DNA of 64,000 nucleotides from an uncultured Oscillospiraceae bacterium (GTDB lineage: Bacteria > Bacillota > Clostridia > Oscillospirales > Oscillospiraceae), in contig CAJUEG010000005.1 in the NCBI GenBank assembly GCA_910584835.1, positions 113 to 64,112 on the forward strand. The letters are read 5' to 3'. The notes beneath the pieces are model-generated. The model saw nothing but the letters and a program-made list of their open reading frames with translations, had not been told where the DNA came from and did not search any database. Of the stretch, positions 40,537 to 59,770 are shown in pieces. Position 1 is the first letter of the stretch. The number at the start of each line of letters is the position of its first letter. Both the position numbers and the translations under genes were made by a program.

Positions 40537-40565
40537 AGACCGCCTGCACACCCGCAGGCGGTCTT
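40537..40565. terminator. Hairpin between convergent genes
   Basis: AAGACCGCCTGC-acaccc-GCAGGCGGTCTT. Confidence 0.7.
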
Positions 40566-40567
40566 GC

Positions 40568-40900
40568 TTATGGCTCCTCGCCGGATATATCTCCAAACAA
40601 AATGCGCAGATAGTCCCTCCGGCCATAGAGTACACGGTCCACATAGACATCCGAGCCGTGGGGCCGATAGAAAATCATGTAGTTCCCGCTGACCAGGAAA
40701 CGGTAATCACCGCTTGCAACCGTGACAGCGGACAGGGGAGAGCCCATGAGGGGAAACATCCTCAACTGATCCACAGCGTCCATGATCCTGTCCACCACAC
40801 GTTTCGCCGCAGATGGGTTTTGCAGCTCCTGGGCGATATGATCCCAGATATTGTCCAGGTCACGGAGGGCTTCTTTGGAGTAGCGGATATTATTCCCCAT
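40568..40900 (-). CDS. RelE/ParE family toxin
   Basis: YSKEALRDLDNIWDHI...FPLMG...YRFLV..NYMIFY...RVLYGRRD. Confidence 0.9.
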   Translation of the reverse strand: MGNNIRYSKEALRDLDNIWDHIAQELQNPSAAKRVVDRIMDAVDQLRMFPLMGSPLSAVTVASGDYRFLVSGNYMIFYRPHGSDVYVDRVLYGRRDYLRILFGDISGEEP

Positions 40901-41150
40901 GGGCCCGCTCCTCAAAATGTGCCCGCATCTCCTCCGGCGTGAGCCAGCCCTCTGTGTCCCCGGACTTCCGGCCTTTGGCAAGCTCACCCATCAGTTTCAA
41001 CGTCGCCTGGGTCTTTTCATAGTCCTGGATATCCACGATGGCATATCTGCCGCGGCCATTTTTCGTCAGAAAGACAGGGGAGCCTACGGCTACATCGTGC
41101 AACACTTCGCTGTAATTGCGCAGATCGGAGATAGGTTTAATGTTCGGCAT
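40890..41150 (-). CDS. Phd/YefM family antitoxin
   Basis: IKPISDLRNY...PVFLTKNGRG; overlaps toxin start. Confidence 0.9.
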   Translation of the reverse strand: MPNIKPISDLRNYSEVLHDVAVGSPVFLTKNGRGRYAIVDIQDYEKTQATLKLMGELAKGRKSGDTEGWLTPEEMRAHFEERAHGE

Positions 41151-41170
41151 CCCATTCAGCCCCTTTCTGC

Positions 41171-41204
41171 TTTACAGTATACGCCAATGCGCTGTAAAAT
41201 TCAA
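41171..41204 (-). promoter_or_regulatory. TA promoter with overlapping operator palindrome
   Basis: TTGAAT-N17-TATACT; TTTACAG...CTGTAAA at 41171-41198. Confidence 0.65.
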
Positions 41205-41242
41205 CATTAAATTTTACTACACTAAAACTGAGGTGATCAACT

Positions 41243-41587
41243 ATCGAAATCAAAATTCCAAAAGAAGTCCGCCAGCACAAGGAAAGCATTTTCTTCGGCC
41301 TGTCCGCCCGGCAGTTTTTCTGTGCCCTGTCCGCCGTGGGGATCGCCGTGGCCGTCTACCTGCTGCTGGGCCCCGCGCTGGGCAAGGAAACCGCGAGCTG
41401 GGTGTGCATCCTGGCCGCCGCGCCCGTGGCCGTGGCTGGGTTCTTCCACTACAACGGCCTGACCCTGGAGCAATTCGCCTGGGCCTTCCTCAAGTCTGAA
41501 CTGCTGTGCGCCGGGGAGCGGCGCTTTGTGTCCGAGAACTTCTACTATGCCCTGTTTCACCGAAAGGGGCGTGACGACTTTGATTAA
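41243..41587 (+). CDS. PrgI family (VirB3-like) protein; ATC start
   Basis: GAGGTGA then ATC-GAA-ATC-AAA: (M)EIKIPKEVRQHKESIFFGLSARQF; two TM segments. Confidence 0.85.
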   Translation: MEIKIPKEVRQHKESIFFGLSARQFFCALSAVGIAVAVYLLLGPALGKETASWVCILAAAPVAVAGFFHYNGLTLEQFAWAFLKSELLCAGERRFVSENFYYALFHRKGRDDFD

Positions 41588-43907: not shown

Positions 43908-43934
43908 ATCTCACCATGAGACACATTTGACCAC

Positions 43935-44999
43935 ATGGGAGAAATCACGTTAGGGAGTTTATTTGATGGGATCGGCGTGTTCCCGCTGGCGGCCCGCCGC
44001 CATGGGATCGTGCCGGTTTGGGCCAGCGAGATCGTAAAGGCCCCCATTTCCATCACCCGGCACCACTTCCCGGGCATGGAGCATTTGGGGGACATCACCA
44101 AGCTGGACGGGGGGAAGATACCCCCCGTCCATGTGCTTACCTTCGGCTCACCCTGCCAAAATTTATCTCAGATTGGCAACCGTACCGGGCTGTCCGGGGT
44201 AAAATCAAGCCTGTTTTTTCACGCGATCAGGATCATAAAAGAAATGAGGGATGCAACTGACGGACAATTTCCAGCAATCGCTGTTTGGGAGAACGTCATG
44301 GGAAGCCTTTCTTCAAATAACCGGCTGGACTATGCGGAAGTGCTCCAGGCGTTCACAGACACCGCAATTCCAATTCCTCGATCTGGAGTGTGGGCCCACG
44401 CCGGAATGGTGCGAGGCCGTGGGGTTGACCTGTGCTGGCGGCTTATGGACGCCCAATATTGGGCAGTCCCCCGGCTGGCACGACGGCAGCGTATCTTCCT
44501 CGTGGCCGGTTTTGGAGGGCGGCGTACTCACGAAATACTGTTTAAGCCCCGCCCAATGTTCCAAGTATCTCCGGCTGGCGGAGAAGGCGGGGTGCCCGCC
44601 GCCCAGGTTTATCGAGGCCCTGTTATTGAAGCAGGGGGGCGTGTACCCATCGTCCGGCCCTTCCAGCTTTTCCGAATGAGGGGGGCGGCCAATGACCGTT
44701 ACCACGTCCAGTTTCGGGACAGCTTCGGCTTTCTGGACGATCCCTTCCCCACGCTGCTGGCCGGGACGGTCTACCCCTTCGCGTTCTACTTTGCCGACGA
44801 TCCTTTGGGGGGCTGTGTGCGGTTCCCGTCGGAGCTGGAATGTGAACGGCTGATGGGCCTGCCCGACGGGTGGACGAAATACGGCGCGGAGGGGGAGAAG
44901 ATCAGCCCAGGCCAGCGTTACCGCGCATTAGGGAACGCCATCGCCCTGCCCTGCGCGGACTACATCATGGCGGGGATCAAAGAGGTACTTGACCCATGA
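43935..44999 (+). CDS. C5 DNA cytosine methyltransferase (alpha chain)
   Basis: LFDGIG; GSPCQ; WENV; RRQRIFLV; ECERLMGLP; RYRALGNA. Confidence 0.92.
   Translation: MGEITLGSLFDGIGVFPLAARRHGIVPVWASEIVKAPISITRHHFPGMEHLGDITKLDGGKIPPVHVLTFGSPCQNLSQIGNRTGLSGVKSSLFFHAIRIIKEMRDATDGQFPAIAVWENVMGSLSSNNRLDYAEVLQAFTDTAIPIPRSGVWAHAGMVRGRGVDLCWRLMDAQYWAVPRLARRQRIFLVAGFGGRRTHEILFKPRPMFQVSPAGGEGGVPAAQVYRGPVIEAGGRVPIVRPFQLFRMRGAANDRYHVQFRDSFGFLDDPFPTLLAGTVYPFAFYFADDPLGGCVRFPSELECERLMGLPDGWTKYGAEGEKISPGQRYRALGNAIALPCADYIMAGIKEVLDP
44251..44679 (+). CDS. Nested out-of-frame ORF, M.EcoHK31I beta-polypeptide-like
   Basis: 142-aa ORF inside the MTase gene; KYCLSPAQCSKYLRLAEKAG resembles the beta-chain pattern as recalled. 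Confidence 0.6.
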   Translation: MQLTDNFQQSLFGRTSWEAFLQITGWTMRKCSRRSQTPQFQFLDLECGPTPEWCEAVGLTCAGGLWTPNIGQSPGWHDGSVSSSWPVLEGGVLTKYCLSPAQCSKYLRLAEKAGCPPPRFIEALLLKQGGVYPSSGPSSFSE

Positions 45000-45056
45000 A
45001 TCCAGGGGCGCGTCCGTCAGGGCGCGCCCCGCTGCTTTTTTAAGGAGGGGAACACC

Positions 45057-47090
45057 ATACCCAAAATAAAGGAACGGAACCAAACCGAGAAAGTAAAAGG
45101 CAAAAAGAAGGGCGGCAAACCCGCCCAGACCGCCGCCCGCCGCGTCATGACGGCCAAGCTGAAAAAGGAGCTGGCCCAGCGGAAACAGGGCGGGGGCCGT
45201 CCCACCGCCGAAATACCCCGTGATAATTTCATTGACATCACCGACGTTTCCACCAACACTACCGGCTCCGCCAGCGCCGACAGCGGCGCCGGGGCCATAG
45301 AGCAGGTGGAGCAGACCACCCAGGCCGCCGTCGATATGGGCCGCGCCACCAAGCGTGGGGCGGCCATGGCCGTGTCCAAGGTGAAGCAGAAGCGCCGGGA
45401 GATCAAGGAGCGGCGGCGCCAGCCGGACGCCCAGGGCCAGCCCCCGGACACACCGACCCCGGCCCCCGGCATCCATGGTAATGATACGCTGCCTGCATCC
45501 GATGCCCGCCATGGGCGGACAGTGGACGGGGCCGCGGCACCCCCGGCCCCCACACCGGGGGATCGTATGCGCCAGCGGGCGGTAGACCAGAGGAAGGAGC
45601 AGCTTACCCGCCCCAAGGCGGGAACACCGTCCCAGGGGGAGGCCCCAGCCTCCCCCCACTACGGCGGGCCCCGGCCTGCCCCTGGCCCTGTCGCCACAAA
45701 GCCCTCCTCCGGGAACCAATCTATCAATCCATCCATCAAAGAGCGCCCCAGGCGCTCCACGCTGCTGAAAGAGAAACCCCAGGCCGGGACCATCCGGCCT
45801 AAGACCCGCCAAGCGGTAGAACAGGCCGCCCGTGTCCGGGCGGCCCCCACCGGCACCCCCGGCCCCACAGGGAAGAAAGCCACCACCAAGCATATCACTG
45901 ACCGGGCCCGGAAGAAAGCCCAGCGGGGTATGCTCCAAAAATCCAAGCAGGCGGCCCAGGTCACCGCCGACCTGTCCAAGCGGGCAGCCCAGGCCACAGT
46001 AAAGGCGGTGAAGGAGCTGATCAACGCCCTGGCCGCCCTGGTGGGCGGGGGTGCGCTGGCCACCGCCATGTGCGTGATCTTCCTGGTGGCCGCCGTGATC
46101 GCGTCCCCCTTCGGCATCCTCTTTGCCAACGAGCCGTCCCCAGGGGCGGTGCCGCTGGCCGCCGCCGTGAATCAGATCAACATGGAGCTATCCGACAAGC
46201 TGGCCGCCCTGCAAACCGGGGACTACAGCGCCATCGACATCCAGGGCGCCGCCCCGGACTGGCGGGAGGTGGCGGCGGTGTTCGCCTGCAAGACCGCCAT
46301 GGGGACGGACAGCGTGGACGTGGCCGCCCTGACCCCTGACCGGGTGGCGCGGCTAAAGGCCGTCTTTTGGGATATGTGCGCCCTTTCGTCCAGCGTGGAA
46401 ACCATCGACCACCCGGCCACGGACGATACAGAAGCATGGACAGAGAGGAAGCTGCATATCACCATCACCCCCAAGAGCGCGGACGATATGCGGACGGCCT
46501 ATGCGTTTTCCGCCGACCAAAACAGCACCTTGACGGAGCTGCTGGACGAGCTGGACGTGATTGGCGGCCTGCTGGCGAACCTGGGCATATCGGACGAAAA
46601 GGTGATAGAAGTGCTTCAGCGTTTGCCGGACGATCTTTCCCCGGAGCGGCGGGCCGTGGTGGAAACCGCTTGTAAGCTGGTGGGGAAAGTCAACTACTTC
46701 TGGGGCGGCAAGAGCAGCGCCATCGGCTGGGACCCCCGCTGGGGCACACTGATGAAAGTCACCTCGCCGGGGAATGACACCAGCGGCACCTACCGGCCCT
46801 TCGGCCTGGACTGTTCCGGGTTCCTGGACTGGGTGCTGAAAAATGTTGGCCTGCCCAGTGATGGGCATTGGTACATCGGCAGAAATTTGACGGCGGTTTC
46901 TACGGCCAACGCCAAACCGGGGGACTTTGCGCTCTATCCCGATTCGTCCCATATTGGCGTGGTGGTAGGCCGGAACGAGGCGGGGACACTGCTGATCTGC
47001 CACTGTGCCAGCGGGCAGAACAACATTGTGATCACTGAGTTTTCCGCCTCCGGCTTTACCGCTGTGGGCAAGCTGTCCTTTATGGACTGA
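45057..47090 (+). CDS. NlpC/P60 (C40) conjugation cell-wall hydrolase; ATA start proposed
   Basis: Basic N-region; TM then SPFGILF; YFWGGKS; GLDCSGF; HIG; CHC. Confidence 0.88.
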   Translation: MPKIKERNQTEKVKGKKKGGKPAQTAARRVMTAKLKKELAQRKQGGGRPTAEIPRDNFIDITDVSTNTTGSASADSGAGAIEQVEQTTQAAVDMGRATKRGAAMAVSKVKQKRREIKERRRQPDAQGQPPDTPTPAPGIHGNDTLPASDARHGRTVDGAAAPPAPTPGDRMRQRAVDQRKEQLTRPKAGTPSQGEAPASPHYGGPRPAPGPVATKPSSGNQSINPSIKERPRRSTLLKEKPQAGTIRPKTRQAVEQAARVRAAPTGTPGPTGKKATTKHITDRARKKAQRGMLQKSKQAAQVTADLSKRAAQATVKAVKELINALAALVGGGALATAMCVIFLVAAVIASPFGILFANEPSPGAVPLAAAVNQINMELSDKLAALQTGDYSAIDIQGAAPDWREVAAVFACKTAMGTDSVDVAALTPDRVARLKAVFWDMCALSSSVETIDHPATDDTEAWTERKLHITITPKSADDMRTAYAFSADQNSTLTELLDELDVIGGLLANLGISDEKVIEVLQRLPDDLSPERRAVVETACKLVGKVNYFWGGKSSAIGWDPRWGTLMKVTSPGNDTSGTYRPFGLDCSGFLDWVLKNVGLPSDGHWYIGRNLTAVSTANAKPGDFALYPDSSHIGVVVGRNEAGTLLICHCASGQNNIVITEFSASGFTAVGKLSFMD

Positions 47091-47181
47091 AAAATAAATC
47101 TCACGGTGAGACACAATTCGCAGCACGAATTAAATCTCACCGTGAGACATATTTTGTGATTCATTCCAAAACAAAGATACT

Positions 47182-47397
47182 TTATTCTTGCGGCTTGACA
47201 ACTTCCGGCTCAAAACGTACAACCTCGCTGGGAGAGCAATCTAAAATCGTACATAATTTTTCCAAAGTCAGCATGGTAATGTTTTTATTCTTTTTTAGCC
47301 AATCTAAAGTGCGGCGGTCAACTCCGGCTTGAATGAGGGCGTATTGAGTTACACCCTTTTTCTTCATTGTGTCCCATAGCGGACTGTAATCAACCAC
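47182..47397 (-). CDS. Cro/C1-type HTH regulator
   Basis: DYSPLW..MKKKG.TQY.L...TLEKLC.ILDC. Confidence 0.85.
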   Translation of the reverse strand: MVDYSPLWDTMKKKGVTQYALIQAGVDRRTLDWLKKNKNITMLTLEKLCTILDCSPSEVVRFEPEVVKPQE

Positions 47398-47451
47398 CTT
47401 GCCACCCCCCGGAAATAGTATCTCCATTATAGGGTGGGGCCAATAATTTGA

Positions 47452-47475
47452 ATATTGCACATATATGTGCAATAT
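47452..47475. promoter_or_regulatory. Perfect 24-bp palindrome, candidate operator
   Basis: ATATTGCACATATATGTGCAATAT between divergent genes. Confidence 0.65.
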
Positions 47476-47501
47476 GGTATGCTGTGGCAGGGTGATTATC
47501 T

Positions 47502-47975
47502 ATGAAAAATAAAACCTGTTGCTTCACAGGCCACCGTCAGCTACCGCCAGGAGAACGGGCGGTGATTACTAACAAGCTGGAATGTACCATAACAACCTTA
47601 TACCAAACGGGTGTCTGTTACTATGGGGCCGGGGGCGCCCTGGGGTTTGACACCCTCGCCGCCCAAGCGGTACTCCATCTGCGGGAGAGCTGCCCCGGCA
47701 TGAAGCTGATCCTCGTCCTGCCCTGTTTGACGCAAACGAGGGGATGGAGGCCGGAGGACGTTGCGGAGTATAAGCGCATCAAGGCCCAGGCGGATAAGGT
47801 TGTCTACACGTCCCAGCAATATACACCGGACTGTTGGCACAAGCGTAACCGTCATTTGGTGGACAACAGTGGGATATGTGTCTGCTATCTGACAAAGAGC
47901 GACGGAGGGACGGCTTATACCGTCAAATATGCGGAAAGACAAGGACTTGAAGTAATCAATGTTGCAATAAAATAA
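47502..47975 (+). CDS. SLOG family (DUF1273/YspA-like) protein
   Basis: CCFTGHR; GGALGFD; RNRHLVDNS; GGTAYTVKYA. Confidence 0.88.
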   Translation: MKNKTCCFTGHRQLPPGERAVITNKLECTITTLYQTGVCYYGAGGALGFDTLAAQAVLHLRESCPGMKLILVLPCLTQTRGWRPEDVAEYKRIKAQADKVVYTSQQYTPDCWHKRNRHLVDNSGICVCYLTKSDGGTAYTVKYAERQGLEVINVAIK

Positions 47976-48220
47976 ACTCTCTGTATAGGGTGTATTTCAC
48001 AAAAGAATGTGTCCCATCATGAGACACATTTCCCACAACGACCATTTTGCAAAAAAATTAGAAAAAATGCGCTCAAACTATATGGTTATAGAGTGGACAA
48101 AAAGCGGCCTGTTTTGGTAGAATACCATAGGTCGAAATGCGCGCGGCTGCCAGCGCATCATGTTTTGCAAAAATATCAAAGAAAGGGGTTGACAGGGAAT
48201 GACGTTCAGGTATGCTTTTA

Positions 48221-48268
<48 letters not shown>

Positions 48269-48384
48269 TAAAGGATACTCGACCTCTTTTCCCCTGTCAA
48301 CCCCATATTCGCTCAAAAGGCCACCTGGAAAGCATTTTTGCTGTCCGGGCGGCCTTTTTGCGCTCATTTGAGGGAGGCTGAACA

Positions 48385-50754
48385 GTGGATAAAAACTATA
48401 TCGCGCCAGCGGCGGCGTTGAAAAAGCTGAAAACGGCCCGGAGCCTGCCGCAGACAGTCTATCTCTACGGGGCCACCGGCTACGGCAAGACGGAGCTGGT
48501 GCGCCAATACCTGTCGGGCCGCCGGTACACCTACCTCTCCTGTGAGGATTTGCCCTGGGAGGCGGGGGCGCTGTCCCGGTTGGAACCGGGCAGGCAGAAT
48601 CAACGGGTGGTGGTGATCGACGACCTGCACCGGCTGAAAAGCGAGGACCTGCGCCGGGAGATTTTGGCGTTGGGGGAACGGGAGGATATATGGCTGATCC
48701 TGATCAGCCGAAGCCCCATCCCTCCGTGGCTCATGCCCCGGCACGTGAAGGACGTTTTTGTCCTGATCTCGGAGAAAGACCTCCAGATGGGCCGGAAGGA
48801 GATCACCAGCTACCTGGACGCGCGGGAGATCGCCTATACAGAAGAAGATATTCAGTATTTGCAGGACACCGCCGAGGGCAACGCCTACGTCCTCCACCAT
48901 GTAGCCCTACGGATGAAGGAGGGCAGCCTGCCCGGCCCGGAGCTTCACGATGAAATATGGGAAGCCTTTGCCTCTTATCTGGAAAATGCGGTGCTGGTAC
49001 GCTGGGACAGCGATCTGCTGGAATTTCTAATGCAGGTCAGCGTGGTGGACGAATTTACACTGGAGCTGGCGGAGATGATCTCCGGCAGCCTCCACGTCAC
49101 CGCCCTGCTGGAGCAGGCGGCGGAGGCCGGGAACTTTATGAGCCAGGAGGACGGCGTATACCGTCTGCGCCCGGTATTGATCCAGGCCCTGCGGAACCGG
49201 GCGTCAAAGATATATGGCCGGGAGCGTGTCAAGGACTTCAAATACAGCGCCGCCCTGTACTACGAAATGCACGACGAGGTGGTTCCGGCGCTGAAGCTGT
49301 TCGAGGAGTGCGGCAAAACCGAGCGTATCAAAAACCTGCTGATCCGCAACGCCCGGATGAACCCCGGCAACGGCCACTATTACGAGCTGCGCCGCTACTA
49401 TTTCAACATGGACGAGAGGGAGATTGCGGACAGCCCGGTATTGATGGCAGGCATGAGTATGCTGTACTCCATGCTGATGAACAGCGAAAAAAGCGAGTAT
49501 TGGTACGAAAAGCTGAAAGCCTACGCCGCCAGCGCCCGCGGCGGCGTCCGACGGGAGGCCCAAAGCCGTTTGGCCTACCTGGACATCGGCCTGCCCCACC
49601 GGGGGAGCCGGAGCGTTTTGGACGTTATGAAAAAAATTCCCGCCCTGCTGTTCGACAAGGGCAACCAGCTCCCGGAATTTTCCGTAACCAGCAACCTGCC
49701 CTCCACCATGAACGGCGGCAAGGATTTCTGCCATTGGAGCCCCGACGATACCATGCTGGCGAAAACGGTGGGGCCGCTGGTAGAGCGGGTGCTGGGCCGC
49801 TACGGGATAGGGCTGGTCAAGGCCGCGTTGGGCGAGAGCTTGTACGAAAAGGGCGAGGACAATTACAAGGTGATGACCCTGCTGACCAGGGCGCAGATGG
49901 AAACGGAGCAGGGCGGGACAATGGAGATCGCCTTTGCCGCTGTGGGTATCAGGATCAGGCTGGCCCTGTTCCAAGGGGACATCCAGGCGGCGCGGGAGCT
50001 GCTGGCGTCCTTTGAACAGGCCGTGAAAGAGAACCGCGCTCCCCAGCTTCTGCCCAACATCCAGGCGTTCCGATGCCGGTTGGCGCTGTATGAGGGCGAT
50101 ATGGACACCGTGGAACGCTGGATGAAAACCGCGCCGGACGAGGATGTGGAGTTTTGCAGTTTGGAGCGTTACCGCTACCTGACCAAAGCGCGCTGCTATC
50201 TGGCGAACGGGGAGTACACAAAGTCCCAGGCCCTTTTGGAAAAGCTGCGCTACTACGCCGAACAGACCAACCGGCCTTATGTCCGTATGGAAACCGGGCT
50301 GCTGTCCGCTGTCACCAAGGAGCGCGTGGGCGGGCCGTGGCAAGAGGAACTGGCCGCCGTTTTCCAGGAGGCGGAGGGCTACCGCTTCCTGCGCTTAATC
50401 AGCGAGGAGGGCGCGGCGGTATGGCCCCTGCTCCAGCGGGAGAAAAAGGCGCTGATGGAGGCCGGAACGCTGGATAAGGACTGGCTGCGCCGGGTGCTGG
50501 ACGAGGCGGAGGAAATGGCCCGCCGTTACCCCCTATATCTGAAAAAGCGGGCGGCGGCAGCGGCGGATTTCAGCGGCACCGCCCTGACCATCCTTCGTTT
50601 GCAGGCGGATGGCCTGTCCCTCAATCAGATCGCTAAAAAATTAGATATGAAATCATTTTCCGTTTCCTATCATATCCAGGAAAACTATCGAAAGCTGAAT
50701 GTTTCCCGCAAGGCTGACGCGCTAATTGCGGCCCGGAGCCTGGGGCTTTTATAG
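48385..50754 (+). CDS. MalT-like ATP-binding regulator with C-terminal LuxR HTH
   Basis: GATGYGKT; VIDD; C-terminal GLSLNQIAKKL...VSYH...YRKLNV. Confidence 0.85.
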   Translation: MDKNYIAPAAALKKLKTARSLPQTVYLYGATGYGKTELVRQYLSGRRYTYLSCEDLPWEAGALSRLEPGRQNQRVVVIDDLHRLKSEDLRREILALGEREDIWLILISRSPIPPWLMPRHVKDVFVLISEKDLQMGRKEITSYLDAREIAYTEEDIQYLQDTAEGNAYVLHHVALRMKEGSLPGPELHDEIWEAFASYLENAVLVRWDSDLLEFLMQVSVVDEFTLELAEMISGSLHVTALLEQAAEAGNFMSQEDGVYRLRPVLIQALRNRASKIYGRERVKDFKYSAALYYEMHDEVVPALKLFEECGKTERIKNLLIRNARMNPGNGHYYELRRYYFNMDEREIADSPVLMAGMSMLYSMLMNSEKSEYWYEKLKAYAASARGGVRREAQSRLAYLDIGLPHRGSRSVLDVMKKIPALLFDKGNQLPEFSVTSNLPSTMNGGKDFCHWSPDDTMLAKTVGPLVERVLGRYGIGLVKAALGESLYEKGEDNYKVMTLLTRAQMETEQGGTMEIAFAAVGIRIRLALFQGDIQAARELLASFEQAVKENRAPQLLPNIQAFRCRLALYEGDMDTVERWMKTAPDEDVEFCSLERYRYLTKARCYLANGEYTKSQALLEKLRYYAEQTNRPYVRMETGLLSAVTKERVGGPWQEELAAVFQEAEGYRFLRLISEEGAAVWPLLQREKKALMEAGTLDKDWLRRVLDEAEEMARRYPLYLKKRAAAAADFSGTALTILRLQADGLSLNQIAKKLDMKSFSVSYHIQENYRKLNVSRKADALIAARSLGLL

Positions 50755-50827
50755 GCCGAGAAATATGTCTCACGGTGAGACACATTAAAGCAAGGGATAT
50801 TTTGAGCATAAAGGAGGCGAACCGCTT

Positions 50828-51301
50828 ATGAGCAAGGACAGCTCCAACCAGCACTTCACCCCGCCGCGAAACGCGAAGCCCATAGACCCGGTTTTGCGGT
50901 TTGGCATGGAGATGAACTACAAAACCATTTATGTCGTCTTTTGCGGGGGCTTTCCCACGCTGTCGGCGTACCTGTGTTTTCAAGAAGATGTGGAGGTATA
51001 CCACGTCAGCACCGCCGAGGAACTGCGGGGGCTGCTGACCGGCGCGGACGGCATACCGGCTGATCTGGCCGTGATATACAGCCCTGACTTCCAGATACTC
51101 CCGCCTATGGCGTTCTTTTCCCCAGTGGACGGCCACGAGACTATGGTGCAATTTTCCCTTGACGCCGCGATTGCCGACGAGGACGGGCTGAACGAATGGT
51201 GTTCCTTGATAGACAGCCTGCGGGCCAAAAAACGGCAGTTTGTAGAGGGATATAAACGATACAGCGAACTATACCCCGAATCGAAGGAGGATTCCAAATG
51301 A
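50828..51301 (+). CDS. Hypothetical protein
   Basis: RBS AAGGAGG; ATGA overlap with the next gene. Confidence 0.65.
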   Translation: MSKDSSNQHFTPPRNAKPIDPVLRFGMEMNYKTIYVVFCGGFPTLSAYLCFQEDVEVYHVSTAEELRGLLTGADGIPADLAVIYSPDFQILPPMAFFSPVDGHETMVQFSLDAAIADEDGLNEWCSLIDSLRAKKRQFVEGYKRYSELYPESKEDSK

Positions 51302-54300
51302 AGCGCAGAATTTTGAGTATCATCACCGCTCTGGCCCTGTGCCTGAGCCTTTGCCCCACCTGGGCGCTGGCTGCGGAGGCAGACCCGTCCCTCTGCGAGC
51401 ACCACCCGGAACATACCGAGGACTGCGGCTACACCGCCCCCACCGAGGGCCACGACTGCGGCCATGAGCACACAGCGGAGTGCTACACGCTGGGCGTCCT
51501 CCCCGACGCGGACAGCGGCGACCCCTACGAGATCGGCGGGGACACGGAAAACCTGCTGGACTGCCAGCACAGCCATAACAGCGAATGTGGCTATGTAGAG
51601 GCCGACCCCGGCGCGCCCTGCGGGTATGAGTGCCGTATCTGTCCCATCGAGGACTTGATCGCCGCCCTGCCGGAGCAGGTGACGGAGGACAACCGGGCGG
51701 ACGTGGAGGCACAGCTCCAGGAGATTCTCGGCCTGTTTTCAGACCTGACCGAGGAGGAACAGGAGGAGATCAACCTCTCCCGAATCTATGCGCTGCAAGG
51801 GGCGCTGGACGAAGCCAACAACCCCATGCCCCTGGCGGGGGCCGTTGAGTACGTGGACGCGGCTGGGAACGCCCAGCAAAGCCCGGCGGACTGCGTGACC
51901 ATCACGGCAGACATGGCGAACAAGAATTTGACCGGCGGCTGGTATGTAGCGGAGGGGAATGTCACCATTAACGGCGCACTCAATTTTAATGGCGAAACCC
52001 ACCTCATTCTCGCCGACGGCTGTACGCTGACCGTGAATAACAACTTACAAACCACGAATCTGACCATTTACGGCCAGACGAACGGCACGGGCTTCCTCTG
52101 TGCGGGCAATAACAGTCTGAGAGCGCCGGCTATTGGCGCTCTGTCATCAAATGTTGCCATTACCATCAATGGCGGCTGCGTACAAGCGATGAGCTTTACC
52201 ATTGTCGTAGGAACAGCGCCATATTATGTAATTGGCGGTCTTGATGGTAGTACTGTAACTATCAACGGTGGCATTGTGGCTGCCAAGGACTCTTATAATA
52301 CCGGACGCACTTTTCCTCAAAACTGTACAGCCAATAGTTCCCGAGGCTGCATTGTCGCTCGGGACGGCGTTGGGGAGGTCTACGGCAGCATGACTCTGGC
52401 GGAAACCTCCGGGAGCGGCATCACGCTATCCTCCCTGCACATCAGCAAGGGCGCAAGCCTGAACAGCCCGGGCAGATGGAAAAGCATTTCCATTACTATG
52501 GAGGATCTGCCGACTGACGATCAATTTAATATTACATTAAAAGATGGGATAAACGCAGCTTCCACCGAGGAGGAAATCAGGAATGCCATTCAAGTCCAGT
52601 CTCCTTATAAAGAGATAGGCCATACCGGAGCCTTCACCATAACAGGTTTGTCGGATGAGAATGTCACACAGATTACAAAAAGCGAGGATGGAACGTGCAT
52701 CGTCACTTTTACCAAGAACGGAAAAGTAGTTACTAGAAATTTCAAGCTGGAAAAGTTGAAAATCGATTCCTCCAGCGTAAGTCTGCCTTGGGACAGTTCT
52801 TACGCTTACACCGGCAGCGCCATTGAGCCAGAGTTCACTGTGACTGTGGAGAAGAAGGTTTTGACAAAGGGTACAGATTATACGGTGGAATACGCCAATA
52901 ACATCAATATTGGTAATGCAACCCTCACCGTGACCGGCATAGGGAACTACGAAGGCACCGTCGAGAAGACTTTTAGAATCACCGATTCGGATGCACTGAT
53001 AGAAGTACAGTATGTCGACGAGTCCGGGCAGAGGCAGACTGCCCAGGCAAAGGCCATCTCAACAATGCTTAACACGACCCAGCTGACTTTGGAGGAGGGC
53101 TGGTACTTCGTGCAAGGCGCAGCGGCCAGGTTTACTATAACTGTGCCGGCTGGGACTACCAGTTACCTCATCCTGCCGGACGGTAGTTCTCTGTACGCGG
53201 GGAGCTTGAATCTGAGTGGCAGCTTGACTATTTATGGGCAGTCCGGAAACAGAGGAAAGCTGGATGCGGGCCCTAGTATGAACAGTACCCTGGTTCCTAT
53301 CCAGCTTAACAATGCGGGAACCCTCACCGTCAATGGTGGGAATTTGTCTGTGACGAAATCTATCGGGGGAGATTTGGCAATCAAACTTTCAAAAAACTGT
53401 ATCTTCACCTACAACAGCGAGAGCGGCCTTTTTAGAGTCAACGGCAGCTTCAATAATAATAATGGCACCCTGCAAACCGAGCGGTTGACGGAGGATATGA
53501 TCGCCGTTGATACAGAAAGGCTCCCCGTTGGCACCGATGAGGATTTGTCGGAAACGGTCAAGGGCTGCGTCAGCCTGGAAAACCCCACCTACGCCGGGAA
53601 AGAGTTTATCCTAACCGGCTGGACGCAGTCGTCCGTCACCAGGCAGGACAACTGCACCTACATCGTCACTTACTCCCACGAAACGAGGGGGACGGTCAGC
53701 AAAACGGTATCGCTGGGCCAGCCCTGCGACCACCTAAGCCAGGGGTACATCAGCAATAACGACGGCACCCACACCAAGACCTGTCTGGACTGCGGCAAAA
53801 CGTGGGATGCGGAGGGCTGCGCCTACGTTTTCAGCGGTGCCGACGGCACCTGCGCGGCGTGCGGGGACAGCGTGACCGTGGCGGTTTCCGGCACGGAGAA
53901 CCTGATCTATGACGGCACTGAGAAAAAGCCGGGAGTGACCGTCACAAGGGCTGGTACGGAGTTGGCAACGAGCAATTATACGGTAGCCTACACCGACAAC
54001 ACCAACGCCGGTACAGCCAAAGTGACCGTGACCATCGGGAATAATCAGGGCACATATAACGGGAGTTTCACCATCGGCAAGGCCACGCCCACGATCACAT
54101 GGGACACCACGGCCCAGGAGCTGCCCTATACCGGCAATCCAGCGGCCATTACAGCGCCCGCCGTGAAGCTGGTGAACAACGAAAACTTTGGGGGGACAAT
54201 CAGCTATTCCTACGCGACCCAAGGCGGCACCGAGTATAAGGACGGCCTGCCTACCAACGCCGGGACATACACCATCAAGGCCAGTATTGCGGCCCAGGGC

Positions 54301-57207
54301 AACTACACCGCCGCCGACAGCACAAACACGCTGACGCTGACCATAAATCCGACCCCAGTAACGTTGACTTTTGCCAATCAGACGATTGCCTACGGCGACA
54401 CACCGACAGGAGCTACCGCTGACCCCGCCAGCGCAAAGATCGAGTATTCCTACACCACCGAAGCAGGCGGCACACCGATCTCCGGCTGGCCCACAAACGC
54501 GGGAACCTACACCGTCACCGCCAAGGTTAAAGCCACCGGCAACTACGGGGAGGCCATCCAAACCGCAACCCTGACGATTAACCCAAAAGCGGTCAGCAAT
54601 CCAACCATTGAGCTGTCCCCCAGCAGCTTTGACTATGACGGCACTGCAAAGAAGCCCGCTGTCACCGTGAAGGACGGCACTACCGTGATCCCGGCCAGCG
54701 AGTACACAGTGGCCTACAGCAACAACATCAACGCTGGCACCGCCACCGTCACCATCACCGACAAGACGGGCGGCAACTACACCGTCAGCGGCACCACGAC
54801 CTTCACTATCACCGCCAAGCCCCTCACCGGGGCGAAAGTGGAAGCCACCGGCACGTTTACCTACACCGGGAACGCACAGGAGCCAGCACCCACCGTGACC
54901 CTGGGCGGGCAACCGCTGACGGCGAACACCGACTACACAGTGACCTACGACGACAACACCAACGCTGGCACCGCCAAAATCACCGTCACCGGGACGGGCA
55001 ACTATTCCGGCACCGCCCAGGGCACCTTTACCATCGGCAGGGCCGACCTGACCGCAGACGGCACCGGCATCGCCAGCGGCACCTATGGCGATAAGCTGTC
55101 CGGGCTGACCGTTTCCGGCCTGACCGCCAAGCTGGGCGAGGCCACGGTGACAGGCACCTGGAAGCTGACCGGGGACACCGTGCCCAATGTGGGGGACAGC
55201 GGCCAATACACCGCCACCTTCACCCCGGCCACCGGTGCGGGCAACTACAACGCGCTGACGGCCCAAGTGACACTGAGCATCGCCAAGGCAAACTATACCG
55301 GCACCACCACGGCAAGTACCTCCGCCAAATTCGGCACCACCGGGACCTATGACCTCTCGGCCCTGCTCCCGGATGGGGCCACGGCGGGGACAGCGGCCAC
55401 CACCAGCGATATTTTTGAGGGGACGCCCACCGTTAGCGGCAAGGCCCTGACCTACCAACTGAAAGCAGGCGCAACGGTTGGCAACACCGGCCCGATCACC
55501 GTGCCCGTGATCTCCACGAACTATCAGGAGTTCAACTTGACCATCACCGTCACCGTGACGGACAAATTCGTGCCCACCCTGACCGTCAGCCCCATCACCG
55601 TCACCTACAGCGGCGAGGCAATCCCCGGCACCGCCATCAAGGGCACGGCCAAGGTGGGGAGCACCACCGTCCCCGGCACCTGGGCCTTTGCCTCCGGCGA
55701 AGCTGTCACCAACGTGGCGGACAGCGGCACAAAGACCGTCAAATTCGTGCCAACCGATAAGGCCACCTACGCCGAGGCCACCGCCGTCGTCGTTGTGACC
55801 ATCGGCAAGGCTACCCCCACGGGCGCGCCCAAGTACACCGCAATTTCTGCCAGCGGCAAGACCCTGGCCGACGCCGGACTGACCACCGAGGGCGGCACTT
55901 TCAGCACTACGGGCACCGTGGCCTGGGCCCTGGGCACAGATACAGCGGTAACGGCCAACACCCAGTACGAGTGGACGTTCACTCCCACCGACGCCGCCAA
56001 CTACAACACCCTGACGGGCAAGATCACACTTTGGGTACAGAGCACGGGCGGCGGCAGCTACGTGCCCTCCGGCCCCGGCAGCTCCAGCCTGCCCGTGACC
56101 ACCACCGGCCAGGGCAGCACCACCACGACCACCACGACCACCGCGGCCCCCACCGCTACCACCCAGGGCGGCACAGCAACCACCACCATCAACACCACCA
56201 TGGGCCAGGAGATCGTGAAGCAGGCCGTGGCTAACAAGAGCGAGGAAGTGGTGATCGCCCCCAAAGTCACCGGGAGCGTCACCAAGGCCGAGGTTTCCAT
56301 CCCGGCCTCAACCGTGGGCCAGATCGGGAGCCAGACCAGCGCGAGCCTGACCGTTTCCACCCCCGTGGCCGATGTGACCATCCCCAACGGGGGCCTGGGC
56401 AGCCTGGGCAGCGCGGGCGGCACCGTGACTGTCACAGCGGAGCAGGTCGGGAACCAGGTGGAGCTAACCGTGACGGCGGGCGGCCAGACCGTTCAGACCG
56501 TCCCAGGCGGCGTAACCCTCACCGTGCCCGCGTCCAACACCACCCCCGGCACCGTGGCCGTGCTGGTTCGCCCGGACGGCACGCGGCAGGTGGTGCGGAA
56601 ATCCGTGGCGGACGGGGACAGCGTGACGATCCCGCTGGACGGCTCAGCCAAGCTGGAAATCGTGGACAACAGCGGCTATTTTGCCGACGTGCCCGCCACG
56701 AGCTGGGCGGCGGACGCCGTGGCCTTTGCCAGCGGACACGAGCTGTTCAGCGGCACCGCCCCCGGCCAGTTCAGCCCCAACACCCCCATGAGCCGGGGGA
56801 TGCTGGCGGTGGTGCTCCACAACCTGGAGAGCAACCCCGCCCAGGCCCTCACGGGCGCATTTATCGACGTGGACAACAGCCAGTGGTATGCCGAGGGCGT
56901 GGCCTGGGCGGAGGCCCAGGGCATCATCGGGGGCTACGGCAACGGGCAGTTTGGCCCCAATGACAACATCACCAGGGAGCAGTTGGCCGTCATGCTGTGG
57001 CGCTATGCTGGAAGCCCTGCCGCGACGGATCGGGAGCTGCACTTTGCCGACGCGCACCGGGCCAGCGACTGGGCATTGGAAGCCCTGCGCTGGGCCACGG
57101 AGAACGGTATCATCAATGGAAAGGGCGGCGGAATCCTCGATCCCACCGGGCAGGCCACACGTGCGGAAACGGCGCAGATGTTAAAAAATTTCATGGAATC
57201 CAAATAA
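51298..57207 (+). CDS. Large SLH-anchored surface protein with Ig/MBG-like repeats
   Basis: Signal peptide; Cys/His-rich N-region; DYTVxY.NN.NAGTA repeats; three C-terminal SLH repeats. Confidence 0.9.
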   Translation: MKRRILSIITALALCLSLCPTWALAAEADPSLCEHHPEHTEDCGYTAPTEGHDCGHEHTAECYTLGVLPDADSGDPYEIGGDTENLLDCQHSHNSECGYVEADPGAPCGYECRICPIEDLIAALPEQVTEDNRADVEAQLQEILGLFSDLTEEEQEEINLSRIYALQGALDEANNPMPLAGAVEYVDAAGNAQQSPADCVTITADMANKNLTGGWYVAEGNVTINGALNFNGETHLILADGCTLTVNNNLQTTNLTIYGQTNGTGFLCAGNNSLRAPAIGALSSNVAITINGGCVQAMSFTIVVGTAPYYVIGGLDGSTVTINGGIVAAKDSYNTGRTFPQNCTANSSRGCIVARDGVGEVYGSMTLAETSGSGITLSSLHISKGASLNSPGRWKSISITMEDLPTDDQFNITLKDGINAASTEEEIRNAIQVQSPYKEIGHTGAFTITGLSDENVTQITKSEDGTCIVTFTKNGKVVTRNFKLEKLKIDSSSVSLPWDSSYAYTGSAIEPEFTVTVEKKVLTKGTDYTVEYANNINIGNATLTVTGIGNYEGTVEKTFRITDSDALIEVQYVDESGQRQTAQAKAISTMLNTTQLTLEEGWYFVQGAAARFTITVPAGTTSYLILPDGSSLYAGSLNLSGSLTIYGQSGNRGKLDAGPSMNSTLVPIQLNNAGTLTVNGGNLSVTKSIGGDLAIKLSKNCIFTYNSESGLFRVNGSFNNNNGTLQTERLTEDMIAVDTERLPVGTDEDLSETVKGCVSLENPTYAGKEFILTGWTQSSVTRQDNCTYIVTYSHETRGTVSKTVSLGQPCDHLSQGYISNNDGTHTKTCLDCGKTWDAEGCAYVFSGADGTCAACGDSVTVAVSGTENLIYDGTEKKPGVTVTRAGTELATSNYTVAYTDNTNAGTAKVTVTIGNNQGTYNGSFTIGKATPTITWDTTAQELPYTGNPAAITAPAVKLVNNENFGGTISYSYATQGGTEYKDGLPTNAGTYTIKASIAAQGNYTAADSTNTLTLTINPTPVTLTFANQTIAYGDTPTGATADPASAKIEYSYTTEAGGTPISGWPTNAGTYTVTAKVKATGNYGEAIQTATLTINPKAVSNPTIELSPSSFDYDGTAKKPAVTVKDGTTVIPASEYTVAYSNNINAGTATVTITDKTGGNYTVSGTTTFTITAKPLTGAKVEATGTFTYTGNAQEPAPTVTLGGQPLTANTDYTVTYDDNTNAGTAKITVTGTGNYSGTAQGTFTIGRADLTADGTGIASGTYGDKLSGLTVSGLTAKLGEATVTGTWKLTGDTVPNVGDSGQYTATFTPATGAGNYNALTAQVTLSIAKANYTGTTTASTSAKFGTTGTYDLSALLPDGATAGTAATTSDIFEGTPTVSGKALTYQLKAGATVGNTGPITVPVISTNYQEFNLTITVTVTDKFVPTLTVSPITVTYSGEAIPGTAIKGTAKVGSTTVPGTWAFASGEAVTNVADSGTKTVKFVPTDKATYAEATAVVVVTIGKATPTGAPKYTAISASGKTLADAGLTTEGGTFSTTGTVAWALGTDTAVTANTQYEWTFTPTDAANYNTLTGKITLWVQSTGGGSYVPSGPGSSSLPVTTTGQGSTTTTTTTTAAPTATTQGGTATTTINTTMGQEIVKQAVANKSEEVVIAPKVTGSVTKAEVSIPASTVGQIGSQTSASLTVSTPVADVTIPNGGLGSLGSAGGTVTVTAEQVGNQVELTVTAGGQTVQTVPGGVTLTVPASNTTPGTVAVLVRPDGTRQVVRKSVADGDSVTIPLDGSAKLEIVDNSGYFADVPATSWAADAVAFASGHELFSGTAPGQFSPNTPMSRGMLAVVLHNLESNPAQALTGAFIDVDNSQWYAEGVAWAEAQGIIGGYGNGQFGPNDNITREQLAVMLWRYAGSPAATDRELHFADAHRASDWALEALRWATENGIINGKGGGILDPTGQATRAETAQMLKNFMESK

Positions 57208-57217
57208 GGGCATGAGA

Positions 57218-57249
57218 GAACAGGGCGGACAATCCGCCCTGTTCTTTTT
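57218..57249 (+). terminator. Rho-independent terminator
   Basis: GAACAGGGCGGA-caa-TCCGCCCTGTTC then T-run. Confidence 0.8.
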
Positions 57250-57434
57250 GCACCAAATTTTGCAAAATATGTAGAAAAAAAGCAGAAAGAAATAAATCTC
57301 ACCATGAGACACAATTTGAAAAATCAGTCGTTTCCCATAACCTTTTAGAATATTTTGACTACTTTTTGCGCTTATCTTTCAAAATCGGGATTTTTAGGAA
57401 GTTAAGTTATAGAAAGGAAAAAGGAGAAGGGCAT

Positions 57435-57863
57435 ATGGACAGAAGATATGAGCAATTCAATGAAATGACCTTTGAATCCTACATCAGAAAAGCAATCGAC
57501 AATGCGGTAAATAAAGTAGGCAAAAAGCAAGCCGAGCGAGAGCAATGGGAACAATCCTTATCCACCATGACAGACGCGGATTTATATTCCGTTTCCCCAA
57601 AGGACGCAGAAATTAAGGGCGTGGGGCAGGTGGGCCGGATATTCCGAGTGCAGGAAGAAGATATATCCATTTATGATGAAACATTGGGGCAAGCTCTTTT
57701 GTCCCTTCTGCCCAAAGATCGCAACGTGATTTTGATGTATTATTTCCTCAAAATGACCGATGAAAAGATTTCCCATGTGCTGGGTGTCACCCGCGCTGCT
57801 GTTCAGCAGCGGCGGAACAACGCCATAAAAAAGCTACACGCACGTTTGGAGGATAGCACATGA
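57435..57863 (+). CDS. Sigma-70 region 4-like protein (Tn916 Orf7-like)
   Basis: TFESYIRK; LGQALLSL...R.VILMYYF..MTD..I...LG..R..V...R. Confidence 0.8.
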   Translation: MDRRYEQFNEMTFESYIRKAIDNAVNKVGKKQAEREQWEQSLSTMTDADLYSVSPKDAEIKGVGQVGRIFRVQEEDISIYDETLGQALLSLLPKDRNVILMYYFLKMTDEKISHVLGVTRAAVQQRRNNAIKKLHARLEDST

Positions 57864-58105
57864 AATGGGTGCCCTTTCCTGTCATATCGGCAGCGAAAGA
57901 ATATGATGCGGAGGCGATTGAGTTCATTTGCCGCCACTTTGAGAGATACATAGTGTACCGCAGCGTCCGAAAATACAGCGATTTATACGGAAATGAGAAA
58001 TCCTTTTTGGATGATGAACGCTATTCCGAGGCGCAAACGGCCATGCTGTCCGCCATTTTCTCGTTTGACTTTAGGGAGCCCCCCGAGGATTATCACGCCG
58101 GTTGA
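57860..58105 (+). CDS. Small HTH protein (Tn916 Orf8-like)
   Basis: PFPVI.AA...D.EAI..I..HF..YI; ATGA overlap with the Orf7-like gene. Confidence 0.75.
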   Translation: MKWVPFPVISAAKEYDAEAIEFICRHFERYIVYRSVRKYSDLYGNEKSFLDDERYSEAQTAMLSAIFSFDFREPPEDYHAG

Positions 58106-58184
58106 ATTTTCATCCGGCAGGAGTATGCCACATACGGCGGCACATTCCTGCGGGCTGAAAATAGCCTGAATCACAACTGAATAG

Positions 58185-58458
58185 GGCAGTCAGATACGTT
58201 CCATATCGCGTTGAGCCAAGCGGCGGGTGCGCAGGGACGTTCCACCGGGAAGGGAGGGAATAGGCCGGGAGGAACCGAGCGAACACCACCAGCGCCGCAA
58301 AGCGGCCCCAGGCAGGGCCGCGGGCGATTATGCGCGTATGGGTAATGATGATACTTGCGTCAGCTATGCGTCACAGTATAGGGCGCCCCGCCATGGGTAT
58401 GGAGGGAGGCACGGTAATTTCCTATGAGGCGGTTTGCCAACCGCCGTCTGAATCTGCC
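58185..58458 (+). ncRNA. Candidate structured RNA, ~275 nt
   Basis: Ends pair (GGCAG-TCAGA / TCTGA-at-CTGCC); several internal stems; no convincing ORF. Confidence 0.5.
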
Positions 58459-58481
58459 TTTGGAGCTATATCGTGAACGGC

Positions 58482-58512
58482 AAAATCCGCGCTGACCGCC
58501 AGCGCGGATTTT
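58482..58512 (+). terminator. Terminator-like hairpin
   Basis: AAAATCCGCGCTG-accgc-CAGCGCGGATTTT. Confidence 0.7.
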
Positions 58513-58541
58513 GTCGTTTCAAATCTCACCGTGAGACACGA

Positions 58542-58569
58542 ATATGAAACAGTCTATGCGGCATATCTT
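58542..58569 (+). promoter_or_regulatory. SigE-like promoter
   Basis: ATA-N17-CATATCTT, same geometry as the sigK promoter. Confidence 0.55.
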
Positions 58570-58603
58570 CCCTGTGTAGACTGACAAAAGGGGGCGCAAG
58601 ACA

Positions 58604-58789
58604 GTTAATATCATCGTACATTACCCGGAAGATAAAGAGAAACAGCGGGAACTCGCCAAAAGGGTCGCTTACGTCCACGCTCAGACGATAGCCGAAAAGT
58701 TGGCGACCCTGTCCTGCCCTGTGGAACAGAAAGCGGCGCTATGCGATGAAATCAAGAAACGATACAAGGCCGCCAATAAAATGAGATAA
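58604..58789 (+). CDS. 61-aa protein absent from the ORF track; candidate recombination directionality factor
   Basis: AGGGGG-N9-GTT; (M)NIIVHYPEDKEKQRELAKRVAYVHAQTIAEKLATLSCPVEQKAALCDEIKKRYKAANKMR. Confidence 0.6.
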   Translation, partial: VNIIVHYPEDKEKQRELAKRVAYVHAQTIAEKLATLSCPVEQKAALCDEIKKRYKAANKMR

Positions 58790-58823
58790 GAAGCGAGGAG
58801 TAGGGGAGAGGGAAAGCCATCCT

Positions 58824-59342
58824 CTACTCCTCGAATCTTTTTAGGTTCTTCCAGGTTCTTTTTGTGATCGACACCCGATTCTGTTCCCATTGCTGCAAGG
58901 TTCCAAAGGGGACGCCGAGGTATTTTGCGTACTCTTTTTGCGTCATGCTTTTCTGTGCTCGGGCCTGCCTGATCTGCTGGCCCTGGCCGTGATAGAGGAA
59001 CAGGTTGAAATCATCCAGGAGCCTTGTGACAGGGACGGAGAACAGCTCCGCAATTTTCCGCATGGTTTCAATGGGATAATAGTCTCGCCCAATTTCTTCA
59101 TAGCTGGAGTATGTGGTGCGGTCTATCCCAGCGTACTCCGCCACATCCTTTTGCCGCAAACCCTGGCTGTATCTGTACCAGCGGAGCTTGTCCGGCGTAT
59201 TGTGGATTTGAGAGGGATCGGTGTATTGGATGTTGAACTTTTCTGCCTCCACCAGCGTGTGAGGTTGGACAAGCTGGAAGCTGTGAATGTAGAGAGGTGC
59301 GTAGATAACGCCCGTGGGAGTATGGAGAACCATTATTTTCAT
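58824..59342 (-). CDS. Protein with two XRE-type HTH domains
   Basis: KLRWYR...LRQKDVAEYAGIDRTTYSSYE and IRQAR...MTQKEYAKYLGVPFGTLQQWEQ. Confidence 0.85.
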   Translation of the reverse strand: MKIMVLHTPTGVIYAPLYIHSFQLVQPHTLVEAEKFNIQYTDPSQIHNTPDKLRWYRYSQGLRQKDVAEYAGIDRTTYSSYEEIGRDYYPIETMRKIAELFSVPVTRLLDDFNLFLYHGQGQQIRQARAQKSMTQKEYAKYLGVPFGTLQQWEQNRVSITKRTWKNLKRFEE

Positions 59343-59416
59343 GCGGCCCGATATGTGGCCGAACGTACGCCATTTTTCGCCAAAGTATGTACGATTGCCC
59401 ACATCGAGGGACTTTT

Positions 59417-59441
59417 GAGCCGTTGCGAGTGAATAGTATTT
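59417..59441. other. Right att junction (inverted-repeat arm plus core)
   Basis: GAGCCGTTgcgAGTGAATAG-T-ATTT. Confidence 0.9.
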
Positions 59442-59770
59442 TCAATGCATCGGCTGGCATAGGTGGCAAGCCTGACGTTTTTGTCCGGCTTGAATGTGGA
59501 TACCCCTTTAATCAGCCCAATGGTTCCGATGGAAATCAAGTCGTCCTGATCACCATTGGGTGTGTAATATTTTTTTACAATGTGCGCCACCAGCCGCAGA
59601 TTATGTTCAATGAGCATATCCCTGGCATCATCATCCCCTTGAGCCATCCGATCCAGACAATTCTGCTCCTCCTCCCGGGTAAGGGCCCGGGGAAAGGAGC
59701 CCGTATTCCCCGCCAGCCGCAGGGTAAAGAACAGTCCGTTCAGTGTCAATAACAGCCATGCCGTCCACAT
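59438..59770 (-). CDS. sigK: RNA polymerase sporulation sigma factor SigK, 5' half (111 aa, with pro-sequence)
   Basis: LIEHNLRLVAHIVKKY; DDLISIGTIGLIKG; RLATYASRCIEN, then similarity breaks. Confidence 0.95.

Follow-up and report, generated by a model that had tools for sequence, protein, structure and literature searches.

We propose that a 61-codon open reading frame (ORF) near one end of a conjugative element probably encodes the sigma-E-controlled recombination directionality factor (RDF) for a large serine recombinase clade whose insertion site is IEN-EIL in the sigK gene of Clostridia. Binding of its product to the recombinase and the resulting excision are predicted. The original prediction for this DNA had put forward an RDF induced by sporulation through sigma-E, and this idea is well supported by comparative evidence: the sigK context of the gene, its co-occurrence with the recombinase, the existence of minimal elements and the promoter motif upstream. 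The ~60-aa family to which the product belongs is new, widespread and unannotated, while the kind of switch is already known.

The element and the split sigK gene

Within the 64,000-nucleotide stretch of DNA analysed here (the window), sigK is interrupted at IEN-EIL by an integrative conjugative element that has a large serine recombinase gene at one edge (Table 1). Joining the two halves at their common AAAT core restores a single frame of 229 aa plus stop, reading CIEN-EILM across the junction. The element carries genes for RepA_N, ParB, ArdA, MobC, a relaxase, a coupling protein, a pilin, PrgI and a VirB4-like ATPase, and in addition NlpC/P60, sortase, SpaA adhesin and ParE genes; the ParE-type toxin gene (40571-40918, minus strand) lies within the transfer region. 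The small gene sits near one end of the element and the recombinase at the other, 43 kb apart and with separate promoters. For the recombinase a SigA-type promoter had been claimed, and TTGATG-N17-TATAAT with a TG extension can indeed be read there on the minus strand. The host genome encodes sigE and spoIIID, both scoring above the family cut-offs.

Table 1. Positions in the window of the element, the sigK halves and the features around the small gene and the recombinase
Feature	Position	Strand	Remarks
Integrative conjugative element in sigK	14085..59437	.	45 kb
sigK 3′ half	13728..14084	-	starts at EILM; in frame with 5′ half
Large serine recombinase	14083..15852	-	589 aa; Resolvase, Recombinase, Zn ribbon, coiled coil
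Recombinase promoter, sigma-A-type, TTGATG-N17-TATAAT	15887..15915	-	TG extension
sigma70_r4 gene and HTH_16 gene	57435..58105	+	orf7/orf8-like
Hairpin, 16-bp stem	58479..58514	+	-28.9 kcal/mol; between orf8 and small-gene promoter
Element palindrome core TCTCACCGTGAGA	58524..58536	.	one of 16; backbone feature, not conserved with small gene
Sigma-E-type promoter ATA-N17-CATATCTT	58542..58569	+	ATA 58542-58544, 17 nt, CATATCTT 58562-58569
Ribosome-binding site AAAGGGGG	58587..58594	+	identical in 13/13 sister contigs
Candidate RDF gene	58604..58789	+	61 codons from GTT (62 if start = ACA at 58601)
Double-HTH Xre gene	58824..59402	-	between small gene and sigK 5′ junction; only part of related elements
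sigK 5′ half	59438..59770	-	ends at CIEN; junction core AAAT at 59438-59441

No other Xis-like gene was found among 46 small ORFs scanned in the element; these came from a set of 53, the seven left out being parts of genes already scanned. A search of positions 13500-60000 against Rfam gave no match. The Xre gene was considered as an RDF candidate and rejected, as it is absent from many elements, including minimal ones. Like the sigK 5′ half, directly behind which it lies, it is on the minus strand; it is present in 21 of 53 homologue loci, and its transcription could start from the sigK promoter in the integrated state and from that of the recombinase on the circle.

Some further observations concern the surroundings of the element. 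Outside the sigK element, positions 2-1138 encode the C-terminal portion of another large serine recombinase, and the host region preceding the element contains collagen-like 9-nt tandem repeats (1200-2600). In sequencing run X7, a contig that matches the sigK 5′ half unchanged departs from the window exactly at the 59438 junction, and the consensus of its loose end resembles the sigK 3′ half, as would be seen for an empty or excised site or for a strain without the element.

A small gene with an unusual start

The stop-to-stop frame at 58580-58789 on the plus strand comprises 69 codons, none of which is ATG, GTG or TTG. An ORF of 61 codons with a ribosome-binding site, a GTT start and no canonical start codon had been described, and re-reading confirmed each of these features, with GTT at 58604-58606 and TAA at 58787-58789. 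An ACA codon at 58601 is as plausible a start as GTT from the sequence; it lies 6 nt from the ribosome-binding site and aligns with the Met of the relative P0002, while the spacing for GTT is 9 nt. The unusual start is not an assembly error, since all 13 metagenome contigs of a sister element (described below) have GTT in the same ACA-GTT context, and contigs of runs X5 and X7 that cover the ORF agree with it (1 and 0 differing letters, respectively). RNA run X15 has contigs over the ORF as well; because contigs show neither strand nor level and may derive from DNA, they were given no weight.

Comparison with sister-element contigs gave synonymous and replacement changes of 7/0 (L094), 6/0 (L102) and 7/1 (L106) with ACA-GTT kept, and therefore points to purifying selection on the gene despite its odd start. 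Judged by this pattern of substitution, the unannotated ORF is a real gene. When the best-placed codon behind the Shine-Dalgarno (SD) sequence was tallied for 52 family members, it was canonical in 38 (three rows being counted as canonical by hand), ATC or ACG in 12 (the ATC cases belonging partly to one clade), and neither canonical nor near-cognate at the right spacing in two, namely the gene studied here and L043.

A sigma-E-type promoter upstream of the gene

The proposed ATA-N17-CATATCTT promoter upstream of the small ORF is confirmed in the sequence. Its relatives were scanned for ATA-N16/17-CATANNNT at 24-90 nt upstream, the spacing having been widened from N17 to N16/17 after a first look at them. 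The 47 upstream regions scanned were those left from 53 rows once near-duplicates and short flanks had been removed, and they include the present locus. The motif was found in 21 of these 47 de-replicated members, the other 26 having no strict motif, compared with a mean of 0.32 (maximum 3) in shuffled sequences, one on the reverse strand and 5/650 for control ORFs. Across the host genome it precedes 13 of 2909 ORFs, five of which are sigK, spoIIIAA, yunB, sipL and a spoIIM-like gene.

The consensus for sigma-E was taken from PMC3789822, according to which ATA versus AC separates sigma-E from sigma-K promoters in C. difficile. The sigma-K pattern, with AC at -35, was seen in 2 of the 47 upstream regions, and control of the small gene by sigma-K would be circular because sigK itself needs excision. 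An ACA[AG] core, SpoIIID-like by comparison with the B. subtilis consensus, lies in the promoter spacer here and in 7 of the 21 family promoters; it is lost in the sister element. The motif is thus present, and we infer a mother-cell sigma promoter directly upstream of the small gene whose activity is predicted. A sigma-E-like motif that points at repA (15875) is absent upstream of the recombinase in eight relatives and was therefore put down to chance.

The protein family

Counted as representatives of 50%-identity clusters, the relatives of the 61-aa product number 278. Direct matches occur in 32 of 400 genomes of the host family, rising to 45 with a profile, and at the level of the class the family was found in 18 of 398 scored genomes. 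Named members, from Ruminiclostridium cellulolyticum, R. papyrosolvens, Lutispora thermophila, Lachnospiraceae and Oscillospiraceae, are hypothetical proteins. Searches of Pfam, NCBIfam and PHROGs with 67 members returned nothing significant and no helix-turn-helix (HTH) or Xis family match, the weak matches being scattered (Tautomerase, for example, in 4/67). The small protein has no match among PDB sequences (best E 0.36), and in the ESM Atlas there were matches under 0.9 to unnamed proteins only.

The AlphaFold model of the protein (mean pLDDT 92.9) has an extended N-terminus followed by two helices. Neither Foldseek against solved structures (best E 5.3) nor VIA-align (best Z 5.5, generic helical hairpins only) gave an informative match to a solved RDF or DNA-binding fold. 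Among 50,697 phage records there was no match spanning 80% of the small ORF, and in four phages, those with the three closest recombinases and the sigK-integrating phiS63, no family match was better than E 0.33. A lone IMG/VR match (L001) was rejected as a chance match within a long protein. Our literature search, which covered few subscription journals, found no description of the ~60-aa family or of a conjugative sigK element. The family has been overlooked because its members are tiny and often start on ATC, ACG or GTT.

Linkage to split sigK genes and to one recombinase clade

We examined 53 non-self homologue loci from the family and class genome scans with up to 10 kb on each side. A split sigK half lies nearby in 47 of them, all with the same junction and related att arms (two of the 47 are copies within one element); a lack of conservation near sigK elements had been named in advance as grounds for abandoning the RDF proposal, which comes through this comparison intact. 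The six homologues without a nearby sigK half include one on a 1.9-kb contig (L082), one that adjoins a recombinase of the same clade (L050), one that adjoins the Xre gene (L064), and L037, L048 and L052, which are related to one another and lie in unrelated mobile DNA.

In 400 genomes of the host family, the small gene (45 genomes by profile) was compared with a recombinase clade delimited at E<1e-90 (40 genomes), three recombinase candidates being scored per genome. Both genes are present in 34 genomes, the recombinase only in 6, the small gene only in 11 and neither in 349. The small gene therefore occurs in 34/40 genomes with the recombinase clade versus 11/360 without it, for which the Fisher P of 1e-33 is an overstatement, related genomes not being independent. 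Two of the 11 genomes that have the small gene and no recombinase at this cut-off are represented by partial matches in long ORFs. The six with the recombinase only comprise one genome in which a divergent member of the small-gene family is seen (E 7.5e-5), two where the candidates are weak (E 0.29 and 2), one whose recombinase is truncated at 336 aa, and two in which less than 9 kb of contig was examined.

Elements for which both sigK halves are seen range from 1.7 to 16 kb with differing cargo, compared with 45 kb here. The minimal elements L083 (1685 nt) and L085 (1661 nt) consist of the small gene, translationally coupled to the recombinase, and nothing else. Divergence of the small protein follows that of the recombinase (Mantel rho 0.60, n=32 loci with both genes); the partial rho given host sigK is 0.45-0.47, versus 0.02-0.16 for the small protein and sigK given the recombinase. 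This co-divergence, which linkage alone would suffice to produce, shows that the two travel as a unit and does not imply contact.

Two loci in this collection have unusual arrangements. In L112 (G111:C29, 2165-9088), a sigK element of 6.9 kb, the recombinase is truncated at 336 aa and the small gene is missing; sigK may be permanently split in that genome. L040, L066 and L067 (G309:C1) belong to one sigK element that has two small-gene copies, a truncated and a full recombinase, and another element between.

Sequences upstream of the promoter

The original prediction noted an element palindrome abutting the -35, and its core is present with the right arm ending just before the promoter ATA. 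Palindromes of this type (core TCTCACCRTGAGA) occur at 16 sites between 17018 and 58536, all inside the element and mostly at gene boundaries; 31 strand matches were counted against 0.31 expected, and the element holds 15 of the genome's 19 exact sites. The palindrome resembles a parS-type site, and a ParB protein of two domains (17126-19447) is encoded in the element; the sites may be KorB-like operators or mark module boundaries. Contigs from two runs that represent other elements match the window as far as the palindrome and diverge from it at 58539 and 58541, and the palindrome therefore appears to mark the end of a backbone module.

Further upstream lie the sigma70_r4 and HTH_16 genes, which we label orf7 and orf8 after those of Tn916. 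A hairpin separates them from the small-gene promoter. It is absent from the terminator scan list and has no textbook U-run after it; its pairing, read by eye, survives both changes in the sister element, and it is likely to be a terminator after orf7-orf8 as judged from its sequence. Positions 58110-58480 form a conserved non-coding stretch after the HTH_16 gene, common to other elements (extra contig depth), with no Rfam match.

The small gene as a probable directionality factor

In the scheme that we favour, the recombinase would be made from its sigma-A-type promoter and would integrate the element on its own. After asymmetric division, sigma-E would transcribe the small gene, whose promoter motif is seen, in the mother cell only. 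By analogy with SprB and CD1234, the small helical protein would then bind the C-terminal zinc-ribbon/coiled-coil region of the recombinase, at the coiled-coil hinge as described for SprB (PMC11722253), and switch it to attL x attR recombination. In the mother cell sigK would be rejoined in frame, the frame itself being evident from the sequence, and the element would stay in the spore. The non-canonical start and the upstream hairpin may hold vegetative levels low, and the palindrome is not required for this scheme of excision. A constitutive recombinase together with a sigma-E-dependent RDF has been proven for CD1231/CD1234 of C. difficile, as described in PMC5025042. RDFs are reported to share little sequence (PMC5025042; PMC10747680; PMC12286644). 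Among the marks of the class are encoding in the same element and co-inheritance with the recombinase, and both are seen here (34/40 versus 11/360, two-gene elements, co-divergence).

The co-occurrence and promoter data would fit equally well if the small protein were a sigma-E-controlled partner in recombination that does not set direction, acting as an activator or stabiliser or as a DNA-bending helper at the att sites. Such a role would account for the retention of the small gene beside the recombinases (454-455 aa) of the minimal elements at L083:8510-10083 and L085:9831-11401, an observation that counts against an RDF because these enzymes have no coiled coil, the part that the SPbeta RDF is described as redirecting in its integrase (PMC11722253), and the protein studied here is basic (pI 9.4). 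However, matches to a DNA-binding family or fold are absent, and the pI of the family (median 7.8, range 4.5-9.7, below 6.5 in 17/53) is not what would be expected of a conserved DNA binder. Wherever a sporulation element has been worked out in the sources cited here, its small co-encoded factor is an RDF, and we consider a partner that does not switch direction quite improbable. It could also be argued that the family consists of RDFs and that the present copy has lost its start codon, being dead or nearly so, with a low basal level of excision. Its place among the 2/52 members with neither a canonical nor a near-cognate start, when 38/52 have a canonical one, is consistent with decay, and initiation at such non-canonical codons is given as 0.1-1% of that at AUG in E. 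coli (10.1101/063800). Against this, ACA-GTT is shared by two lineages separated by 6-8 changes in the ORF, all but one synonymous, and the ribosome-binding site and promoter are unchanged while the adjacent palindrome decays. Another 12/52 members appear to use ATC or ACG starts, and conserved non-canonical starts after strong SD motifs have been documented in Firmicutes (PMC13009471). A dead copy thus seems very improbable.

A separate matter, compatible with the RDF role and assessed independently of it, is whether the element's own regulon also induces the small gene for conjugative excision, acting on the palindrome or through transcription that continues from orf7-orf8. In favour of this, members of the element family move between hosts, their ends adjoining at least six host sigK alleles, and excision must precede transfer; moreover the small gene is co-oriented behind orf7-orf8, and a hairpin without a textbook U-run may leak. 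The palindrome limb of this dual control, as originally proposed, is not supported by comparison: none of the 54 homologue loci (L032-L085) has the palindrome, and in all 13 sister contigs it is either altered, with differences at 4 of the 13 core positions, or replaced, as in L106; the -35, -10, ribosome-binding site and GTT are kept. Its position at the end of a backbone module also speaks against a role in regulating this gene, and a scan of the interval from the hairpin to the small gene gave no sigma-A-like site. The proposed xis-like position after orf7-orf8 holds for this element and its sister but for 0/53 homologue loci, and the strong hairpin intervenes; judged from gene order, this position is local history and not a family trait. 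Overall, induction by the element's own regulon is rather unlikely.

Comparison with known systems

The closest parallel to a sigma-E-controlled RDF here is CD1234/CD1231 of the C. difficile skin element, which likewise combines a small gene with a sigma-E-type promoter inside a sigK-splitting element with a sigma-A promoter for the recombinase; by the same logic, an RDF would confine excision to the mother cell (PMC5025042). CD1234 is described as a protein of 72 aa and pI 5.5 without database relatives, whereas the protein here has 61-62 aa, a pI of 9.4 and relatives in 278 50% clusters; the comparison with CD1234 covers this published length and charge. The skinCd element occupies a different place in sigK and is not conjugative as described, in contrast to the conjugative element here at IEN-EIL. 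Both C. difficile skin and phage phiS63 are reported to insert elsewhere in sigK (PMC3442830, PMC6957869).

By contrast, the insertion codons are identical to those of B. subtilis skin, where attBskin is given as RCIEN-EILM and Skr/SpoIVCA are under sigma-E control (PMC6957869). In L079, L080, L083, L084 and L085 the small gene stands immediately before the recombinase, in the order of skr-spoIVCA, but here the two genes are 43 kb apart with separate promoters and the recombinases of the two systems are 27% identical. The family did not match a 64-aa Skr-like ORF of Bacillus spizizenii (hhalign probability 0.5%, no HMM match), the one Skr-like ORF compared, picked by its length and overlap with spoIVCA.

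SprB of phage SPbeta, which acts on SprA, is likewise a small, mostly helical RDF (PMC6957869, PMC11722253). As described there, the RDF and integrase genes of SPbeta also lie one at each end of an active mobile element inserted in a sporulation gene, and come close together on the excised circle. The carrier is a phage, however, whereas here it is a conjugative element; sprB is reported to have a stress promoter and a mother-cell promoter, but a second promoter was not found for the small gene, and the fold search returned no match.

In Tn916 the xis gene follows orf7-orf8 and encodes a protein of the winged-helix Xis family. The small gene likewise stands behind sigma70_r4 and HTH_16 genes, but Xis partners a tyrosine recombinase, whereas the recombinase here is a serine enzyme, the small protein has no HTH or Xis match, and the position is not conserved in the family.

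Implications and spread of a sister element

A survey of 15 skin elements, including that of R. cellulolyticum, names the recombinase as the only gene in common (10.1101/2022.02.25.481979). The ~60-aa family would be a second gene common to a large clostridial subset of skin elements, a claim on which the supplements of that survey (Table S7, Fig. S4C) may bear. It provides a candidate RDF for a recombinase clade present in about one-tenth of the 400 genomes sampled in the host family, could explain how hosts with a split sigK still sporulate, and offers integrase/RDF pairs as candidates for engineering.

Skin elements described in the sources cited here are prophage-like or phages, whereas the present carrier is conjugative and its ends are almost identical in several host species, and this raises the question of how sporulation-gated excision is reconciled with conjugation. 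Given that no vegetative promoter was found for the small gene, excision for conjugation might come about by leakage through the hairpin, by rare RDF-independent excision, as has been suggested for CD1231 (PMC5025042), or by transfer from the mother cell. In a more far-reaching scenario, which we regard as unlikely, a conjugative skin element spreads among gut Clostridia via sigK with a sigma-E RDF, throttled by its non-canonical start, as its sole excision switch; sporulating mother cells serve as donors while the spore keeps the integrated copy, and the RDF family is the second shared gene of clostridial skin elements. If this were true, the element would be excised and transferable mainly in the doomed mother cell, and sporulating cells would be the donors.

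The sister element came from a metagenome scan that gave 17 loci, 13 of which (L094-L106) belong to it, with 98-100% protein identity to the small protein. Its end, over 835 nt, is 99.5-100% identical across the 13 contigs and abuts at least six different sigK 5′ sequences as distinguished by their first bases, the full 330-nt alleles being 69-88% identical. The allele groups are L094; L096/L099; L097/L098/L100/L106; L101/L104; L102; and L105. Assembly chimeras are possible, but three of the sister-sigK junctions recur in more than one contig. Together these sequences indicate that a conjugative skin element has recently spread horizontally among host species. The sister element thus passes from species to species while lacking an intact palindrome, and it has to be excised in a donor.

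The two remaining contigs, L095 and L103, continue into non-sigK DNA beyond the att site. Past this site, from ~5713 in L095 and ~5317 in L103, where sigK would be expected, there is other DNA with an ATPase gene. Some 2-3 kb further on, L103 also has a second Xre gene and a sigK 5′ half, an arrangement that suggests tandem or nested elements sharing a single site.
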